Assembly: GCF_053078305.1 (NCBI RefSeq)
Contig: NZ_CP166879.1
Length of the DNA stretch: 64,000 nt
Reading direction: 5' to 3' (one strand)
Position 1 is the stretch's first letter; each line of letters opens with the position of its first letter. The position numbers and the translations under genes are program-made. Below are positions 10,964 through 59,654 of the stretch, piece after piece. Below the pieces are notes generated by a model, which had not been told where the DNA came from, searched no databases, and worked only from the letters and a program-made list of their open reading frames with translations.

Positions 10964-11112
10964 GATAAATTGCTCAATCCGCCAGATAACACATACTTGC
11001 AGGCGGTGATGTGAATTAAGTTAAGTGATAGACTATTTCATCATTTTTTTAGCTGCTATGTACATAGCGTTAACGCTGTGCCATGAAGCAACAGCGAGGA
11101 GTGTAGTCGCAA

Positions 11113-22765: not shown

Positions 22766-23512
22766 ATGCATTATGCCGTTGTTGTCATGCTTGAACTGCT
22801 TTGCTGTATTCACGCTTACCGTACCGGACAAGAGCGGTACTGGATTTTTATCATTTTCTGTTTTCCGGTGATTGGCTGCGTGGCGTATTTCGTCATAGTG
22901 ATGCTGCCTGAAACGGGCGCTGACCGTCACGGGCATACTTTGCTGATGCGCCTGCAGAACAAACTCAACCCTGAGCGCCACCTGCGCAAATTAACCGAAG
23001 AACTGGCGATTGCCGAGACGAATCAAAACCATTATGCGTTGGCTAATGAACTGGCGCGTCTGGGGCGTTATCACGAAGCTGTTCCCCATTATCAGCAGGC
23101 GTTAAGCGGGATATTCGCCCATGAAGCGGCAATGATGCTAAGCCTGGCGCAGGCACAGTTTGCTATTCAGGAGTTCGCCGCCTGTCAGCAGACGCTGGAA
23201 GATGTGATGCGTTATAACCCTGATTTTCAGTCGGCAGACGGGCATTTGTTATTTGCCAGAACGTTAGCCGCACAAGAAAAATACGCTGATGCGGAAAGCG
23301 AGTTTGAAGTATTGATTTCTTATTACCCCGGCCCGCAGGCGCGTATTTACTATGCGGAAATGTTGGCGAAAATGAGTCGGTTACGTGAAGCCAACGAGCA
23401 GTATGTTGCTGTAGTTGATACGGCTAAACGCTCAAGACCTCATTATAGAAAACACCACCGGGAATGGATTAAGACCGCCAATGAACGGCTGAAGCAGAGT
23501 GTGGTGCAATGA
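22766..23512 (+). CDS. Hypothetical membrane-anchored protein: PLD-nuclease N-terminal-like two-helix anchor plus a TPR-like helical-repeat domain; accessory relative to K-12
   Basis: 248-aa ORF with its own RBS (GGAAAGG) and a downstream hairpin terminator. The N-terminus (CCIHAYRTGQERYWIFIIFCFPVIGCVAYFVIVMLPE) looks like a PLDc_N-type small membrane domain; the remainder is helical and alanine/leucine-rich. Confidence 0.6.
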   Translation: MHYAVVVMLELLCCIHAYRTGQERYWIFIIFCFPVIGCVAYFVIVMLPETGADRHGHTLLMRLQNKLNPERHLRKLTEELAIAETNQNHYALANELARLGRYHEAVPHYQQALSGIFAHEAAMMLSLAQAQFAIQEFAACQQTLEDVMRYNPDFQSADGHLLFARTLAAQEKYADAESEFEVLISYYPGPQARIYYAEMLAKMSRLREANEQYVAVVDTAKRSRPHYRKHHREWIKTANERLKQSVVQ

Positions 23513-31890: not shown

Positions 31891-32385
31891 TTATGAACAA
31901 CTGTCCATGATTTCGTTTAAGAATGAAGAGAAATCACTAAACGAACTGAATATATTTTCTGTGCCAATATTATCTCTAATTTCAAAAAAGTTACTTTTAA
32001 TGTCATAAGTAAATATTGAAATGCTATCATCCCCGATCACTAACCGTTCTTGTAGATCAGGGTTTATGAAATCATCATTATTTCTATAAAATTCATTTAC
32101 GGCAAAAAGGTTTTTAACTGAAGGTTCTGGAATCGAGAGGCTAAATAATCGTAATCCATTAACTTCGAATCCATCCATTGCTCTTAAAAAAGTAAGATAA
32201 TCAGGTTGATTCTTAAAAAGAATACTAACTTCATTACATAACTTCTCCAGGCAATTAGTTGAATTAGAATTAAATTCTATTTGGATTATACTTTCAATAA
32301 ATGATTCCTTGAGCGGTGCTTCAAATGGATAGTCTAAATCATTCATCATTTTTATTAATTTGTTTATTTGGGTTTTAGTCATCAT
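31891..32385 (-). CDS. yrhA: Putative immunity protein for the upstream Hcp-HNH toxin (intact yrhA-like gene)
   Basis: 164-aa acidic protein whose start sits in an ATGATGA overlap with the yhhZ stop, indicating translational coupling. AT-rich. Calling it the intact counterpart of the K-12 yrhA pseudogene is from memory. Confidence 0.65.
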   Translation of the reverse strand: MMTKTQINKLIKMMNDLDYPFEAPLKESFIESIIQIEFNSNSTNCLEKLCNEVSILFKNQPDYLTFLRAMDGFEVNGLRLFSLSIPEPSVKNLFAVNEFYRNNDDFINPDLQERLVIGDDSISIFTYDIKSNFFEIRDNIGTENIFSSFSDFSSFLNEIMDSCS

Positions 32386-33560
32386 TTTGTGGGTTCCATA
32401 ATATTTTTCATGGGAGGATAAATTGAGCCAGATGGAATGGCCCAGGGAGTGATTTTGCTTTCACCTACTAATATTCCCTTAGCTATTCGTGATTGCATGT
32501 TAGTAAAAACTTTATGATATGGTTCGTTTTCGATTAATACTAAATTTTCGAAATCATTAGTACCACCATCATCTAGAGATAGTTTATGGTGAACATTATA
32601 ATTTAGAGGAACATAGCCCTTTCTCATTCTTAAAAGGTCTTCGGTGTTGAATCTTCCAGATGCTTCGGAGGTTTTTGCAAGTTTGATAAGAAAATTTTTT
32701 CTTACAGTTTTGTTAAACTCCTTTCGTAAGTTAGCTAAGTCTTTTGAAGGTCTCTTAATGTATATTATTTCTATTATGTCTATGCCATCAAGAAGTTTTT
32801 GTTGACCTCTAAGTTTGCCTAAGTAACTATTTATTTCTGTATATGTATCAACTTTAGAACGCTTTGTTAAAAGAATAGATGCTGTTGCTATCGCTATGCC
32901 CGCTGTTTTTTCATTTAGTATTTGATCATAGCCTTTGATTGCATCTCCACCCAGTTTTTCCGCAGTATCTCTGAAACCTTCAATGTTCCCATTGTATACG
33001 CCACCAGCAGCAAGTAGCCTGCCAACAGCTTTGCTGTTTAACGTTTTGAAACGATTATTTGTTTGGTTTTTTGAATTTGGTAAAAACAAACGGTTATAAT
33101 TTTCAGGGAGTGCCAAATAGCTGAACTCGGTATTTGCGATAAGATGTTGACAGAGGATAAATTCATAACTAACAGTTATTGTTTCTGTATCCAGTTGATT
33201 TTCAATGATCTGATGATGAATAGCCGATAAAAAAGCGCCTCTTAGTTGTATATAATAATACTTTTCCCATCTGCCAAATCTATTGATTCTATAAAAGTCA
33301 AATTCCATAAATAATTGCTCATTATTGTTAATGGAATTAATAAGTAATGGAGTGCTTTTATCAATTAATTTACAAAATGTTATACCCTGTAACTGTGAAC
33401 CAAGCCCCGTATTAGTAATGCTATTTGCGAGTGAGAATGTAAATATTTCATTCTCATGCCCGCTCTGCCAGCGATTACCTATAGATTCAGTAGTCCCACA
33501 ACCTGCGGAGATGCTTCCTTGTTGTTCTCCCGTTACTGTCAGGTAAACAATATTACTCAT
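32382..33560 (-). CDS. yhhZ: Orphan T6SS Hcp-family protein with a C-terminal HNH-type nuclease toxin domain (Hcp-ET type)
   Basis: 392 aa. The N-terminal roughly 130 aa resemble Hcp. The C-terminus carries an HNH signature (NYNVHHKLSLDDGGTNDFENLVLIENEPYHKVF). AT-rich composition. Confidence 0.8.
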   Translation of the reverse strand: MSNIVYLTVTGEQQGSISAGCGTTESIGNRWQSGHENEIFTFSLANSITNTGLGSQLQGITFCKLIDKSTPLLINSINNNEQLFMEFDFYRINRFGRWEKYYYIQLRGAFLSAIHHQIIENQLDTETITVSYEFILCQHLIANTEFSYLALPENYNRLFLPNSKNQTNNRFKTLNSKAVGRLLAAGGVYNGNIEGFRDTAEKLGGDAIKGYDQILNEKTAGIAIATASILLTKRSKVDTYTEINSYLGKLRGQQKLLDGIDIIEIIYIKRPSKDLANLRKEFNKTVRKNFLIKLAKTSEASGRFNTEDLLRMRKGYVPLNYNVHHKLSLDDGGTNDFENLVLIENEPYHKVFTNMQSRIAKGILVGESKITPWAIPSGSIYPPMKNIMEPTK

Positions 33561-33796: not shown

Positions 33797-34285
33797 TTAC
33801 TTCACCCGCGCCATATAATACGCATCGACATATTCACCATTACGTAATGCGTACTTCTTACCAGTCCCTTCAATTTCAAAGCCGTATTTTTTATAGACCT
33901 TAATTGCTGGCGCGTTATCGACGAACACCGTTAGCTCGATACGAGCTACCCGCAACCAGTTGTCGCACATTTCAATCATCTCTCGCATAAGGGCGCTGGC
34001 GACGCCGCGATTCTTCCAACGGGAGTCGACACAAATACCAAAATCGGCAACATGACTGCGGCGTGGGCGCTGTTGCACGTCAATGGTGAGGTGACCCACG
34101 ACGGTTCCATCAATACAGGCAACTAACTGTTTGATGCCGGGACGATCGGCGAGTCGCTCCTGCCACATATGATCGGAAGGATGAGGCACCTGTAGTGTGT
34201 TGCAATACACCTCCGGCTGGGCGTGAATCTGCCTGATGGCCTCGTAATCGCGCGTTTCAGCATGGCGTATCACTATCTCACTCAT
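33797..34285 (-). CDS. yhhY: GNAT-family N-acetyltransferase
   Basis: Trimmed to MSEIVIRHAETRDYEAIRQIH... giving 162 aa. Acetyl-CoA-binding motif RWKNRGVASALM. Confidence 0.88.
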   Translation of the reverse strand: MSEIVIRHAETRDYEAIRQIHAQPEVYCNTLQVPHPSDHMWQERLADRPGIKQLVACIDGTVVGHLTIDVQQRPRRSHVADFGICVDSRWKNRGVASALMREMIEMCDNWLRVARIELTVFVDNAPAIKVYKKYGFEIEGTGKKYALRNGEYVDAYYMARVK

Positions 34286-34381
34286 TCCTTTGTCCTCTTT
34301 GGGGTAAATGTCCCTTTCAACATCATTGACTTTCGAATGCGAGTCAAATGCATTTTTTTTGCAAAAAGTGTTGGACAAGTG

Positions 34382-34404
34382 CGAATGAGAATGATTATTA
34401 TTGT
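34382..34404 (+). promoter_or_regulatory. Fur box overlapping the ryhB promoter
   Basis: GAATGAGAATGATTATTATTGTC, matching the Fur consensus (GATAATGATAATCATTATC-like), immediately upstream of the ryhB start. Confidence 0.8.
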
Positions 34405-34407
34405 CTC

Positions 34408-34497
34408 GCGATCAGGAAGACCCTCGCGGAGAACCTGAAAGCACGACATTGCTCACATTGCTTCCAGTATTACTTAGCCAGCCGGGTGCTGGCTTTT
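34408..34497 (+). ncRNA. ryhB: Iron-responsive small RNA RyhB
   Basis: GCGATCAGGAAGACCCTCGCGGAGAACCTGAAAGCACGACATTGCTCACATTGCTTCCAGTATTACTTAGCCAGCCGGGTGCTGGCTTTT matches the RyhB sequence as I recall it, ending in its intrinsic terminator hairpin plus U-run. Located between yhhY and yhhX as in K-12. Confidence 0.92.
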
Positions 34498-34619
34498 TTT
34501 TTGATCTTTCGTTCTCAATTTATCCTCGGGAAGTGCTTGTGTTCGTTATGCGCACTCCAGTAGGAACCACGTCCGCTTTGCGCTAAGGTGTAAATAACCA
34601 CCTTAAAAAGGACGAAATC

Positions 34620-35657
34620 ATGGTCATCAACTGCGCCTTTATTGGCTTCGGCAAAAGCACCACCCGTTACCATCTGCCGTATGTACTTAACCGCAAGGAT
34701 AGCTGGCATGTCGCGCATATTTTTCGTCGCCATGCGAAGCCGGAAGAACAGGCTCCCATTTACTCTCATATCCATTTCACCAGCGATCTCGACGAAGTGC
34801 TAAACGATCCCGATGTTAAGCTGGTTGTGGTCTGCACCCACGCGGACAGCCATTTCGAGTACGCGAAACGCGCGCTGGAAGCCGGGAAAAATGTGCTGGT
34901 CGAAAAACCGTTCACTCCGACACTTGCGCAGGCGAAAGAGCTGTTTGCACTGGCGAAAAGCAAAGGGCTGACCGTCACGCCATATCAGAATCGTCGCTTT
35001 GATTCCTGCTTCCTGACAGCGAAAAAAGCGATTGAAAGCGGCAAGCTGGGAGAGATTGTCGAAGTGGAAAGCCATTTTGACTATTACCGCCCGGTCGCAG
35101 AAACCAAACCTGGGTTGCCGCAGGATGGCGCGTTCTATGGCCTTGGTGTGCATACGATGGACCAGATTATTTCTCTGTTCGGTCGCCCGGATCACGTCGC
35201 TTATGACATCCGCAGCCTGCGTAATAAAGCCAATCCTGACGATACTTTCGAAGCGCAACTGTTTTATGGCGATCTAAAAGCCATCGTCAAAACCAGCCAT
35301 CTGGTGAAAATCGATTATCCGAAATTTATCGTTCACGGTAAGAAAGGTTCGTTTATTAAATACGGTATCGACCAGCAGGAAACCAGCCTGAAGGCTAATA
35401 TTATGCCGGGCGAACCGGGATTCGCAGCGGATGATTCGGTCGGTGTGCTGGAGTATGTCAATGACGAGGGCGTGACGGTCAGAGAAGAGATGAAGCCGGA
35501 GATGGGCGATTACGGGCGCGTTTATGATGCGTTGTATCAAACCATCACCCACGGTGCGCCAAATTACGTCAAGGAATCTGAAGTTCTTACCAATCTGGAA
35601 ATCCTTGAACGCGGATTTGAGCAAGCCTCTCCCTCCACCGTGACTCTCGCGAAGTAA
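34620..35657 (+). CDS. yhhX: Gfo/Idh/MocA-family NAD(P)-dependent oxidoreductase
   Basis: 345 aa with N-terminal Rossmann motif (INCAFIGFGKSTTRYHLP). Confidence 0.9.
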   Translation: MVINCAFIGFGKSTTRYHLPYVLNRKDSWHVAHIFRRHAKPEEQAPIYSHIHFTSDLDEVLNDPDVKLVVVCTHADSHFEYAKRALEAGKNVLVEKPFTPTLAQAKELFALAKSKGLTVTPYQNRRFDSCFLTAKKAIESGKLGEIVEVESHFDYYRPVAETKPGLPQDGAFYGLGVHTMDQIISLFGRPDHVAYDIRSLRNKANPDDTFEAQLFYGDLKAIVKTSHLVKIDYPKFIVHGKKGSFIKYGIDQQETSLKANIMPGEPGFAADDSVGVLEYVNDEGVTVREEMKPEMGDYGRVYDALYQTITHGAPNYVKESEVLTNLEILERGFEQASPSTVTLAK

Positions 35658-54833: not shown

Positions 54834-56351
54834 ATGGACAGAATGATGCCAAATAGAAAATGGATTTTGACCTCGCTGATAATGACTTTTTTCGGCATCC
54901 CCATACTGGCGCAATTTTTGGCAGCGGTTGTTGCCATGCTGGGTGTCGGGCTTACCGGTATTATTGAAGTTTGTAATATCCTTATCACGCCAACAATTTA
55001 TCTTCTACTCAACGTCTTTATGCTGACGCTGGGGGCGATAATAATATTTTTCTCTGGTCGCGTGTGGGCCGGTGATAGCGCGCCAGAAAACAGAGAAATA
55101 GCCGTCTGGCGGCAATGCTTTTTTCTCTTACCCGCGCTATTAACCCTGGTTGGCTGGATAATCACGCTACATCTGGCAGATTATCAATTTCGCCAGATGG
55201 GAGCTGGTTGGTTGGCAAACCTTATGCTTCCCTGGTTGGGCGTTTTTTTAGTCTCATTAGTGGGTGGTGAGTACTGGTGGATGGTCATTATTCCCGTTGG
55301 GGTGCATATCAGTTTTTCGCTGGGATACGCCTGGCCGACCAGATATCCTTTATCCGGCACGTCCGGACTACGTTGCCGTAACTTACTCCTGTTTCTACTT
55401 CTCTTACTTGGTATTGTCGCCGGGTATCAGGCCCATTTATATAAGCAGCAAAATCCTGGTGTCGGTGTACGCGAAAATATTGATATCTGGGCCTGGCGAC
55501 CCGATAAACTCAATAATCGACTGACGCCGCTGCGTGGCAAACCGCAAATTCAGTTTAGGCAAAACTGGCCGCGAATCGATGGCGCCACGGCTGCGTACCC
55601 AATTTATGCTTCTGCATTTTATGCATTAAGTGTAATACCAGAGGATTTTCACGTTTGGGATTATCTGGAAAACTCTCGTACGCCAGAAGCATATAACAAA
55701 ATCGTTAAGGGCGATGCTGATATTATTTTCGTGGCGCAACCTTCCGGTGGGCAAAAAAAACGTGCAAAGGAATCTGGTGTCACTTTGCTGTACACCCCCT
55801 TTGCCCGTGAAGCATTCGTTTTCATCGTCAATGCGGATAATCCGGTTAATTCCCTGACTGAACAACAGGTGCGTGACATTTTCAGTGGTGCAATTACCAA
55901 CTGGCGTACTTTTGGCGGTAACGATCAGGAGATCCAGACCTGGCAGCGCCCGGAAGACTCTGGCAGCCAGACAGTGATGCAATCACAGGTCATGAAAAAT
56001 GTCCGCATGATCTCGCCGCAGGAAACGGAAGTGGCAAGCGTGATGGAGGGAATGATTAAAGTCGTTGCCGAATACCGTAATACAAACAACGCAATAGGCT
56101 ATACCTTCCGCTATTACGCGACGCAAATGAATGCTGATAAAAATATAAAATTGCTAGCGATTAACGGTATTACACCGACGGCGGAAAACATTCGCAACGG
56201 CAAATATGCGTACATCGTCGATGCATTTATGGTGACGAGAGAAAATAAAACGTCAGAAACACAAAAACTGGTCGAATGGTTTTTAACGCCGCAGGGGCAG
56301 AGTCTGGTAGAAGATGTGGGATATGTGCCGCTGTATAAAATCTTACCTTAA
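54834..56351 (+). CDS. Membrane-anchored PstS-like (phosphate-binding-type) periplasmic binding domain protein; accessory relative to K-12
   Basis: 505 aa. The N-terminal roughly 200 aa hold multiple hydrophobic helices; the C-terminal roughly 280 aa resemble PstS-like binding proteins (IDGATAAYPIYASAF, LTEQQVRDIFSGAITNWRTFGG). Start may be ATG 54843, which has better SD spacing. Confidence 0.65.
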   Translation: MDRMMPNRKWILTSLIMTFFGIPILAQFLAAVVAMLGVGLTGIIEVCNILITPTIYLLLNVFMLTLGAIIIFFSGRVWAGDSAPENREIAVWRQCFFLLPALLTLVGWIITLHLADYQFRQMGAGWLANLMLPWLGVFLVSLVGGEYWWMVIIPVGVHISFSLGYAWPTRYPLSGTSGLRCRNLLLFLLLLLGIVAGYQAHLYKQQNPGVGVRENIDIWAWRPDKLNNRLTPLRGKPQIQFRQNWPRIDGATAAYPIYASAFYALSVIPEDFHVWDYLENSRTPEAYNKIVKGDADIIFVAQPSGGQKKRAKESGVTLLYTPFAREAFVFIVNADNPVNSLTEQQVRDIFSGAITNWRTFGGNDQEIQTWQRPEDSGSQTVMQSQVMKNVRMISPQETEVASVMEGMIKVVAEYRNTNNAIGYTFRYYATQMNADKNIKLLAINGITPTAENIRNGKYAYIVDAFMVTRENKTSETQKLVEWFLTPQGQSLVEDVGYVPLYKILP

Positions 56352-56453
56352 GCAGGATAATCATATGGATACCGGTATTATTCGCCTGAACGCGGCCAAT
56401 GCTCGTTTTGTTTATCAACCGTTTACACGCAATCAGCGGAAGAGGGAGTAATT

Positions 56454-57230
56454 ATGCAATGCAGCCCCGCCATGCAGGCATTAATTGAGCAGATTTATCA
56501 TATTTTTCGTCGTTATCCGGTGCCGTCGAGATTTCATGTTTGTTGTCCTTACTGCTTTAGCGAAGAACAACAACAAGCCTTAAGAGGGGTTTCACTGCGT
56601 GCCATACCTTTCCCTTTATTACATGCCTGGGGAACAAGTATTGGTCCTACCCCGCAAAATGATGATGAGATTCGCTATTTATTACCCAGATTGTTTGAAT
56701 TTATTTCCCAAAGGCAATTTCCAGGCATTTATGAAGGCTGCTGTTTACAGAGAATAGCAGAGGCAGATAACCAGAACTGGCGAACGGACGAACTACAAAT
56801 AATTAGCGATTTCGCCTATTTATATATGCAGGATTGGGTGTCGGCTAAGGAGGTCGTAGAACTGGAAATAATATTAGAAATGTTTTATCGCGGTGGTATA
56901 AAGATTGAACCCTTACTTGACGCCATTATGTCCATTTCCGGTTACTGGCCGACGGCGTCTATGGCATGTTTGCTCTGGCGTAACAGTAAAGAATACGTCG
57001 AAAATAGCGATTTTGAGCAGAGTGATGATAATAAAACTATTACCACTCAAATTAATACCTGGGCTAGAAATAATCATCCTTTTCTGAAAGAAAGAGCGCG
57101 ACAAGCGATTGAGAACCCACTAAAACAGCCTGAACCAATGACAGAATATCAAGTCTGGGAAGACGACTGGATGATTGATGAGTGTTTATGCGCGATGTAT
57201 GACGCATCACCCGAACAATCAGGACAATAA
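56454..57230 (+). CDS. Hypothetical Cys-rich soluble protein
   Basis: 258-aa ORF with a HVCCPYC cluster near the N-terminus and no recognised motifs; AT-rich codon usage. Confidence 0.5.
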   Translation: MQCSPAMQALIEQIYHIFRRYPVPSRFHVCCPYCFSEEQQQALRGVSLRAIPFPLLHAWGTSIGPTPQNDDEIRYLLPRLFEFISQRQFPGIYEGCCLQRIAEADNQNWRTDELQIISDFAYLYMQDWVSAKEVVELEIILEMFYRGGIKIEPLLDAIMSISGYWPTASMACLLWRNSKEYVENSDFEQSDDNKTITTQINTWARNNHPFLKERARQAIENPLKQPEPMTEYQVWEDDWMIDECLCAMYDASPEQSGQ

Positions 57231-57232
57231 AG

Positions 57233-57823
57233 ATGAATAAAATCAGACTTTATATTTATCCGCTATATCTCGGCTTTGTTATTGTGCCGTTGTTGGTGTG
57301 GCCGACGGTGGTTGTTGTTGGTATCACACTGAGTTTTCTAATGGAGATGCTGTTCTCAAATTCGTTCATGCACAGGCGTATTTCCCTTCTGGAATTACAA
57401 CTTGGGTTATTGGCTGAATATACGCTTTTGTTCTGCGCCATATGTTGCGTTGGTTGGCAATTTGCTCGCATAACTCAATCTGAATTGAAAAGCAAACTGC
57501 ATTATTGGCTGGTATTTGTACCAGTTTATTTCTGGTTGCTCCTGTGGAATATCATTTTCTATGTCGCGCCAGCGAAAATTGCATTGCTGGAAAATATGCG
57601 CAGTTTCTTTCTGACCGTTGTCTGGCTCCCACTGAATTTTTCGCCATTTTGGTCTCAACCGTGGATTGACTTTGTCGGTCCAATAAGCGCACAGCTTGGT
57701 TTTGCGTTGGGATATTATTGCCAGTGGCGTAGCAAAAATAGAAGCCAGAGGAAGAAGTGGGGCGAGTGGGTAATGTGCTTAAGTTTTGTTACGTTGGGTA
57801 TGATGGCGTGGGCTTTGCGGTAA
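57233..57823 (+). CDS. Hypothetical polytopic membrane protein
   Basis: 196-aa ORF with 4-5 predicted TM helices. Its start is 3 bp after the stop of the upstream ORF. Confidence 0.5.
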   Translation: MNKIRLYIYPLYLGFVIVPLLVWPTVVVVGITLSFLMEMLFSNSFMHRRISLLELQLGLLAEYTLLFCAICCVGWQFARITQSELKSKLHYWLVFVPVYFWLLLWNIIFYVAPAKIALLENMRSFFLTVVWLPLNFSPFWSQPWIDFVGPISAQLGFALGYYCQWRSKNRSQRKKWGEWVMCLSFVTLGMMAWALR

Positions 57824-57857: not shown

Positions 57858-57995
57858 AACGTGGCGCTTTGTTCATGCCTGATGCGGCGTGAACGCCTTA
57901 TCAGGCCTACAAAATCATGCAAATTCAACATATTGCATAAACCACGTAGGCCTGATAAGCGTAGCGCATCAGGCAATTTTGTGTTTGTCATCAGT
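57858..57995. repeat. REP/BIME palindromic units between the accessory module and glpD
   Basis: GCCTGATGCGGCGTGAACGCCTTATCAGGCCTACA and inverted TAGGCCTGATAAGCGTAGCGCATCAGGCA. Confidence 0.85.
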
Positions 57996-58037: not shown

Positions 58038-59543
58038 TTACGACGCCAGCGACAACTTCTGCTGCGTATATTCCACCAGCCACTGACTCACACGAGATTG
58101 TTGATCCGCATTCAGCCACATGCCTTGTTTTGTGCGACGCCACAGGGCATCGTCGGCGCGGCGGACCCATTCGTGATCCACCAGATATTTCAGCTCCGCT
58201 TCGTAGAACTCATGACCGAAATCCTCCCCAAGGTCGCTTACCGCTCCCGCATTGCCGAGCAGCAGCTCGCTGTTGCTGCCATAAGTACGCGCGTAATGAC
58301 GTGCCAGCGATTCGGTCAGGAACGGATAACGACGGCGCAGACGAGCTGCGTAATCGTCGCGGTCGCCTTCAATGGCACCACCCGGCAGCACGCTCTCTTT
58401 CGTCCATGCCGGGCCAATGCCCTGATAATACGGCGTCAGTTTTTCCAGCGCATGTTCCGCCAGTTTGCGGTAGGTGGTCAACTTACCGCCGAATACCGAC
58501 AGCAGCGGTGCTTTGCCGTTTTCATCATGGATATCAAGGGTGTAATCACGGGTAATAGCCTGCGGCGAGTCGGACTCATCATCACACAGCGGACGCACAC
58601 CGGAGTAGGTCCAGACGATATCGTCACGGCTTAACTGCTTTTTAAAGTGCGTGTTATACACTTTCAGCAGGTAATTGATTTCACTCTCTTCAATCTTCAC
58701 TGCTTTCGGATCACCTTTGTATTCCACATCGGTGGTGCCGATGATGGAAAACTCGTCCATCCACGGGATCACGAACACAATGCGTTTATCTTCGTTTTGC
58801 AGAATGTAGGCCTGCTTTTGGGTATGCACGCGCGGCACCACAATATGGCTACCTTTGATCAGGCGAATGCCATAAGGCGAAGGCAGATGCATCCCGTCGT
58901 CGAAGAACTGTTTCACCCACGGGCCGGTGGCGTTAACCAGGCCGCGCGCTTGCCAGCTATATTTTTTGCCGGTATCGATATCTTCCGCTTCCACAATCCA
59001 CAGGCCGTTTTCGCGACGAGCAGAAGTAGCACGAGTACGAGTAAGCACTTCGCCGCCTTTACGCACCACCATCTGGGCGTTGGCGAGTACCAGACGGGCG
59101 TCGTCTACCCAACAGTCAGAATATTCGAATCCGCGCTTAATTTCCGGTTTTAACACTGAGTTTGCGCCAAAACGCAAACCAGTTGATCCCGGCAGGCTGG
59201 TGCGTTTACCCAGATGATCGTACATAAACAGACCAATGCGAATCATCCACGCCGGGCGCAGATGCGGACGATGTGGCAGGCGAAAACGCATCGGGAAGGC
59301 GATATGCGGGGCCATTTTCAGCAGCACTTCACGTTCAGCCAGCGCCTCGCTGACCAGGCGGAATTCATAGTGCTCAAGGTAGCGCAGGCCACCGTGGATG
59401 AGTTTTGAACTGGCGGAAGAGGTCGCGCAAGCGAGATCCTGCGCCTCCAGCATCAGCACGGATAAACCGCGTCCAGCGGCGTCTGCCGCGATACCAGCAC
59501 CATTGATGCCGCCACCTATCACAATCAGATCTTTGGTTTCCAT
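58038..59543 (-). CDS. glpD: Aerobic glycerol-3-phosphate dehydrogenase
   Basis: Trimmed to METKDLIVIGGGINGAGIAADAAGRG giving 501 aa; FAD-binding GxGxxG. Confidence 0.96.
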   Translation of the reverse strand: METKDLIVIGGGINGAGIAADAAGRGLSVLMLEAQDLACATSSASSKLIHGGLRYLEHYEFRLVSEALAEREVLLKMAPHIAFPMRFRLPHRPHLRPAWMIRIGLFMYDHLGKRTSLPGSTGLRFGANSVLKPEIKRGFEYSDCWVDDARLVLANAQMVVRKGGEVLTRTRATSARRENGLWIVEAEDIDTGKKYSWQARGLVNATGPWVKQFFDDGMHLPSPYGIRLIKGSHIVVPRVHTQKQAYILQNEDKRIVFVIPWMDEFSIIGTTDVEYKGDPKAVKIEESEINYLLKVYNTHFKKQLSRDDIVWTYSGVRPLCDDESDSPQAITRDYTLDIHDENGKAPLLSVFGGKLTTYRKLAEHALEKLTPYYQGIGPAWTKESVLPGGAIEGDRDDYAARLRRRYPFLTESLARHYARTYGSNSELLLGNAGAVSDLGEDFGHEFYEAELKYLVDHEWVRRADDALWRRTKQGMWLNADQQSRVSQWLVEYTQQKLSLAS

Positions 59544-59654
59544 GCTGCCCTCATTCACTTTCGTTAAAGCTCATAAATGTTCGTTATCGAACATATTAGC
59601 AAAGAATCGCGCTTTAGGTAACATTGAAAAAACATTTTAGAGTGATATGTATAA

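Follow-up and report, generated by a model that had tools for sequence, protein, structure and literature searches.

The known Escherichia coli small RNA gene ryhB, with its promoter, Fur operator and terminator, in the yhhY-yhhX intergenic region of contig NZ_CP166879.1

RyhB, a small RNA characterised since 2001-2002, holds a central place in the control of iron homeostasis in enterobacteria. The account of its biology used here draws on four papers (PMC2189734, PMC3788343, PMC3423075 and PMC3415461), from which the binding of Fur, the response of expression to iron, the dependence on Hfq and the decay of targets are taken, as they have been described for the identical sequence. Repression of ryhB by Fur, binding of the RNA to Hfq, and its pairing with the sodB and sdhCDAB mRNAs followed by their RNase-dependent degradation are summarised in a review (PMC3788343), a passage of which cites Masse and Gottesman (2002) for induction of the K-12 transcript by iron limitation or loss of fur. 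The interaction of E. coli Fur with the ryhB site has been established by gel shift and information-theory analysis, in which four sites make up a cluster of 25.2 bits with its centre at -15 (PMC2189734), and direct repression by Fur has been demonstrated for the orthologous ryhB of Klebsiella (PMC3423075).

Here we analyse this locus in a window of 64,000 nucleotides, the whole stretch of contig NZ_CP166879.1 (RefSeq assembly GCF_053078305.1) under study, for which we computed identity, covariance-model membership, the anatomy of the promoter, Fur box and terminator, conservation, terminator covariation and sodB complementarity. An earlier note, made from the letters of this DNA, had pointed to a 90-nt match to RyhB and had called it a known element. 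A search of the window with the curated K-12 ryhB gene (b4451; NC_000913.3 3580922-3581016, complement, 95 nt) recovered it at 34408-34502 on the plus strand with 100% identity over 95 of 95 nucleotides. These boundaries follow the K-12 annotation and include a terminal T9 tract; the 90-nt form that is usually cited, which is the version that the earlier note had seen, corresponds to 34408-34497. The alignment to the Rfam RyhB model that the same note had proposed as a check was run, and family RF00057 matches at 34437-34501 with 83.1 bits (E = 3.6e-14), against a gathering score of 55, covering model positions 1-67 of 67 without truncation. The match begins 29 nt past the 5' end because the 5' third of the RNA, which is species-specific, lies outside the model. 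It is the one RyhB match that Rfam yields in the 64-kb window, which points to a single canonical copy.

The genomic setting is equally that of the reference gene. The annotation of identical DNA (K-12 and PGAP), together with the list of open reading frames, places ryhB between its divergent neighbour yhhY (33797-34285, minus strand), coding for an N-acetyltransferase of 162 aa, and its downstream neighbour yhhX (34620-35657, plus strand), coding for an oxidoreductase of 345 aa; this is the orthologous intergenic position that the literature gives for RyhB and the one that had been named for the match. When the yhhY-yhhX intergenic region was aligned with that of K-12 (361 columns), only five columns apart from the end overhangs differed, all of them outside the promoter and the RNA. 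One substitution and one 1-nt indel lie upstream, another substitution and another 1-nt indel lie downstream, and the fifth mismatch falls at window position 34273, within yhhY, where the end of the alignment was trimmed.

On this evidence we consider it practically certain that the element is the known E. coli ryhB, coding for the Fur-repressed, Hfq-dependent small regulatory RNA RyhB. The gene is a textbook ryhB, already known and not new, and the copy in the window equals the reference gene. A match of this kind might in principle be a chance resemblance, or a decayed and non-functional RyhB copy. Against this stand the Rfam E-value, the complete identity to a functional K-12 gene with promoter and operator included, and the occurrence of the yhhY-yhhX intergenic region once per chromosome, in the canonical position, in 5424 of 5426 complete E. 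coli genomes. No point was found in favour of such a copy, the probability of which is vanishingly small, and we regard it as ruled out by the Rfam score, the K-12 identity and the presence of the locus throughout E. coli.

A consensus scan of the region 34200-34700 identified a single promoter-like site, a sigma-70 promoter on the plus strand composed of the -35 hexamer TGGACA (34372-34377), an 18-nt spacer and the -10 hexamer TATTAT (34396-34401), with 10 of 12 consensus matches; the -10 element ends 6 nt before the position of the K-12 5' end (34408). Every 19-mer of the window was then scored against the Fur-box consensus GATAATGATAATCATTATC, and the top score among the approximately 64,000 positions, 16 of 19, was obtained at 34387-34405. 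Just five other positions in the window reach 14 of 19, one of them being an overlapping site at 34381-34399 (14/19). The two overlapping sites constitute an operator cluster (34381-34405, unstranded) that spans the -10 element and ends 3 bp short of the transcript start, and the start at 34382 chosen in the earlier note is the edge of this cluster. The position of the operator over the -10 element agrees with the published cluster centred at -15 (PMC2189734), and its geometry is that expected for repression by promoter occlusion. The Fur box that had been suspected over the promoter is thus supported both by its score and position and by the gel shift of the same study.

At the 3' end of the gene, a scan of 34200-34700 found exactly one terminator-like site. 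It consists of the hairpin AGCCAGC-CGGGT-GCTGGCT at 34476-34494, with 7 pairs, of which 5 are G-C, and a loop of 5, followed by nine T at 34494-34502. This Rho-independent terminator (34476-34502, plus strand) agrees with the Rfam structure, supplies the 3' hairpin and U tail characteristic of RyhB, and corroborates the claim that the RNA ends in an intrinsic terminator. Minimum-free-energy and centroid folds further predict a 5' stem-loop formed by RNA nt 1-20 (34408-34427, plus strand), which lies outside the Rfam model. The least structured parts of the RNA are the pairing segment, with a mean unpaired probability of 0.63, and an A/U-rich single-stranded linker before the terminator (34465-34475, plus strand), with a value of 0.79, as against 0.28 for the terminator itself. 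By analogy with the general architecture of Hfq-dependent small RNAs, this linker is a likely Hfq contact. The fold of the whole RNA is no more stable than that of shuffled sequences (z = -0.67), which is normal because the key region of such a small RNA must remain unpaired; the structural support for ryhB is that of the terminator and the Rfam structure, and the whole-RNA fold is excluded from the evidence.

Within E. coli, identity over the 131 nt comprising the promoter and the RNA is 99% or higher in 5413 of 5424 complete genomes, whereas the 117-nt spacer directly downstream reaches this level in 1576 of 5421. This difference indicates that ryhB is constrained far more strongly than the non-coding DNA beside it. 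In strain 23AR0151 (NZ_CP195448.1 310787-310926; H24) the promoter and RNA have 93.6% identity to the query and 9 additional nucleotides; it is the only one of the 5424 genomes to fall between 90 and 95% identity.

To follow the gene across species, one genome per species was scanned for the exact 27-nt core GCACGACATTGCTCACATTGCTTCCAG, which in the window lies at 34441-34467 on the plus strand and contains the target-pairing (seed) region. The exact 27-mer was found in at least 120 loci. Among the matches listed, the core-bearing Enterobacterales include Escherichia, Citrobacter, Enterobacter, Klebsiella, Yersinia, Serratia, Pantoea, Erwinia, Pectobacterium, Dickeya, Photorhabdus, Xenorhabdus and Hafnia, and the further genera are Aeromonas, Photobacterium, Aliivibrio, Salinivibrio and Zobellella. 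Of the 119 listed copies with enough upstream sequence, 118 have a Fur box scoring at least 14/19 in the 130 nt that precede the core, as against 0.8% of 506 control stretches taken from the same loci. In the listed copies from Enterobacterales and Aeromonas a GC-rich hairpin and a T-run follow within about 30 nt after the core. RNAalifold applied to 25 diverse copies recovers the terminator stem, the fourth pair of which is A-U in 13, C-G in 8 and G-C in 4 of the 25 sequences and is never broken, a pattern of compensatory substitution; the columns of the internal Rfam hairpin are invariant by construction, since the loci were chosen by an exact match to the 27-nt core. The Vibrionaceae copies among the matches listed have no terminator adjoining the core, which implies a longer RNA, and this fits the description of the Vibrio RyhB as longer. 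Many genera among the matches listed also carry a second core copy, situated at unlinked loci without yhhY; second RyhB copies have been reported in Salmonella, Klebsiella and Yersinia.

This pattern of conservation bears on whether the region codes for a small protein, instead of or besides a regulatory RNA. Four mechanical open reading frames overlap ryhB: three on the plus strand, of 61-71 aa (34223-34438, 34348-34563 and 34401-34586), and one on the minus strand, of 55 aa (34282-34449). They are a small qualification to the earlier statement that nothing in the ORF track points to the element, since the mechanical list does contain frames that cross it. The case for a small protein lies in the plus-strand frames 34348-34563 and 34401-34586. 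Like the third, 34223-34438, which stops inside the RNA, both begin upstream of the 5' end of the transcript; moreover, both extend across the poorly conserved spacer, and conservation at the locus is strongest in a 27-nt block without variation at any position, which shows none of the third-codon-position variation of a coding sequence. The transcript itself (34408-34502) contains no ATG and no start codon with an in-frame stop, and on its sequence it is to be classed as non-coding. As the transcript has no complete open reading frame we dismiss the protein-coding reading, which is extremely improbable.

A different possibility is that ryhB serves chiefly as a leader or attenuator of yhhX under Fur control, with the short RNA being a by-product of termination. 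The two share a strand, with the element 118 nt ahead of the ATG of yhhX, and the Fur sites were first assigned to yhhX, prior to the recognition of ryhB (PMC2189734). However, the terminator is strong, with its 5 G-C pairs and T9, and E. coli genomes show poor conservation of the spacer that separates it from yhhX although the RNA is nearly invariant. Furthermore, tblastn searches with the YhhY and YhhX proteins of the window found yhhX adjoining the core in just 24 of the 120 listed loci; core, Fur box and terminator are kept in at least 96 loci without an adjacent yhhX. Regulation in trans by the RyhB RNA is, in addition, documented in the literature (PMC3788343). A pure yhhX-leader role, contradicted by the terminator, by the spacer and by the fact that in most listed loci neither yhhY nor yhhX accompanies the module, is very unlikely, and a leader function would be minor at most; some read-through of the terminator into yhhX may occur. 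The locus is best described as a gene for the trans-acting RNA RyhB.

The same tblastn searches found yhhY adjoining the core in 49 of the 120 listed loci. The linked yhhY is divergent in all 49, and in 48 of them the distance between its start codon and the core is 143-213 nt, with a median of 156, the value in the window. A divergent yhhY-ryhB pair with near-fixed spacing (window 34286-34407; loci L003-L122) extends from Escherichia to Yersinia, Serratia, Pantoea and Hafnia, and the conservation of both linkage and spacing indicates that the window copy is the ancestral, yhhY-linked orthologue. The near-fixed spacing further raises the idea that yhhY could share the Fur control of ryhB, with the operator cluster acting in both directions and the shared 122-bp control region placing yhhY under the influence of Fur and iron. 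We offer this tentatively, as a proposal that is on balance rather doubtful; if it is true, the uncharacterised acetyltransferase YhhY would be coupled to the iron-sparing response. In one regulon table yhhY is listed under Fur (PMC2710865), and its expression is elevated in a ryhB deletion mutant (PMC5808207). Since yhhY already figures in a Fur regulon table, a bidirectional operator would be a refinement and not a discovery.

The conserved single-stranded core of RyhB, GCACGACAUUGCUCACAUUGCUUCCAG, is present in the window as the exact 27-mer at 34441-34467. RNA nt 37-57 (34444-34464), falling within it, are complementary to positions -14 to +6 of K-12 sodB, a segment that spans both the Shine-Dalgarno sequence and the AUG. 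The duplex between core and sodB has an energy of -18.0 kcal/mol and includes nine consecutive pairs. Among 2000 shuffled cores, 16 reach the same energy with sodB, and 4 of 87 ORF start regions in the window match or beat it; given that the sodB value is equalled by 4 of the 87 start regions, the pairing energy is supportive and not decisive. When full-length RyhB was paired with the sodB leader by RNAduplex, a sprawling duplex of 86 nt resulted, and 29 of 45 start regions of the window scored as well. RNAduplex on full-length sequences ignores intramolecular structure, and the core-only analysis with its controls was used instead.

The strongest duplex among the 87 ORF start regions of the window, exceeding that of sodB, is formed by the Shine-Dalgarno region of ftsY (11084-11111, plus strand; ftsY start 11113), which is complementary to RyhB core nt 34-58 with an energy of -22.5 kcal/mol. 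No link between RyhB as regulator and ftsY as target was found in the literature searched, and the complementarity is probably due to chance.

Taken together with the published work, these features allow the action of the window copy to be pictured as follows. When iron is plentiful, Fe2+-Fur would occupy the operator at 34381-34405, overlapping the -10 element, and transcription would be blocked. When iron is scarce, Fur would leave the operator, and RNA polymerase would initiate at about 34408 and run as far as the hairpin and T9, so that the transcript would measure 90-95 nt. With Hfq, the single-stranded core at 34441-34467 would then pair with the translation-initiation regions of mRNAs such as those of sodB and sdhCDAB, the targets being mRNAs for non-essential proteins that use iron. 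Such pairing would bring about a block of translation and RNase-dependent decay of the mRNA, which together would make up the iron-sparing response. We found nothing that contradicts this explanation, in which we have very high confidence.

With respect to annotation, only the curated K-12 record, among the records compared, annotates ryhB. No PGAP feature covers the gene in three RefSeq records inspected in full or in 16 further listed rows, and the ORF track is silent at ryhB because RefSeq PGAP records carry no feature there. The neighbouring yhhY is affected in another way. According to the K-12 and PGAP annotations, YhhY starts at the ATG at 34285 and begins MSEIVIRH, whereas the mechanical frame 33797-34378 uses a TTG start and, with 193 aa, is 31 codons too long. 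The suspicion that the start at 34378 is over-extended was therefore justified by the annotated length, and this start lies 30 bp from the 5' end of the RNA. Tracks built on open reading frames cannot detect ryhB, and under the longest-ORF rule yhhY intrudes on the shared promoter region by 31 codons. Pipelines that scan for novelty should first mask the small RNAs already known to Rfam.

Several other segments of the window were recorded in the course of the analysis. On the far side of yhhY, a yhhZ-like gene (32382-33560, minus strand) codes for a protein of 392 aa, the N-terminal 140 aa of which correspond to T6SS_HCP and are joined to an unassigned C-terminal extension; its name in PGAP is 'Hcp1 family type VI secretion system effector', and yrhA follows. 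The segment upstream of yhhY is variable between strains, NZ_CP019944 having a DUF4225 pseudogene there. Between livF and ugpB lies a gene for a TPR-repeat protein of 248 aa (22766-23512, plus strand; Pfam TPR_19 and others), for which PADLOC gave no match.

Between gntU and yhgN, the segment 39844-43142 (plus strand) holds two overlapping genes that PGAP names 'RecQ family helicase' and 'DprA'. Both match PADLOC models over their full length, PsyrT with 1056.6 bits and PsyrA with 668.8 bits, and their Pfam domains are DEAD/Helicase_C and DNA_processg_A; from these matches the pair is assigned to the known PsyrTA toxin-antitoxin anti-phage defence system, forming a small accessory island. To our knowledge K-12 has no PsyrTA pair between gntU and yhgN. 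Further along, three open reading frames lie between glgP and glpD (54834-57823, plus strand), of which one of 505 aa has a PBP_like_2 (PstS-like) domain, and two, of 258 aa and 196 aa, matched nothing in Pfam or PADLOC. Beyond about 56350 the window diverges from the otherwise closest genome (H11), as the H11 coordinates yield stop codons there. A second Rfam family, RF02751 ES036 (CssrF), matches at 57911-57953 (plus strand) with 39.3 bits against a threshold of 37.6 (E = 2.2e-4), between the unannotated 196-aa frame (57233-57823) and glpD (58038-59558, minus strand).

Among the systems described so far, the closest to the window element is RyhB of E. coli K-12 (ryhB/sraI, b4451, RF00057), with which it shares the RNA, promoter, Fur operator, terminator and position between yhhY and yhhX, and from which it differs at no position within the gene. 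The yhhY-linked RyhB copies of other genera are orthologues of the window copy. More broadly, RyhB-1/RfrA and RyhB-2/IsrE/RfrB of Salmonella, ryhB and ryhB-2 of Klebsiella, the two Yersinia copies and the long RyhB of Vibrio share the core and the upstream Fur box; the copies from Enterobacterales and Aeromonas have a GC-rich terminator as found here, whereas those of Vibrionaceae have no adjacent one. A functional parallel is offered by PrrF1/PrrF2 of Pseudomonas, NrrF of Neisseria, HrrF of Haemophilus, FsrA of Bacillus and IsrR of Staphylococcus, which, as described in the literature (PMC3788343 among others), are, like RyhB, small RNAs repressed by Fur that down-regulate iron-using proteins. 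These analogues have unrelated sequences and structures and belong to other Rfam families, unlike the window element, which is a true member of the RyhB family by sequence.
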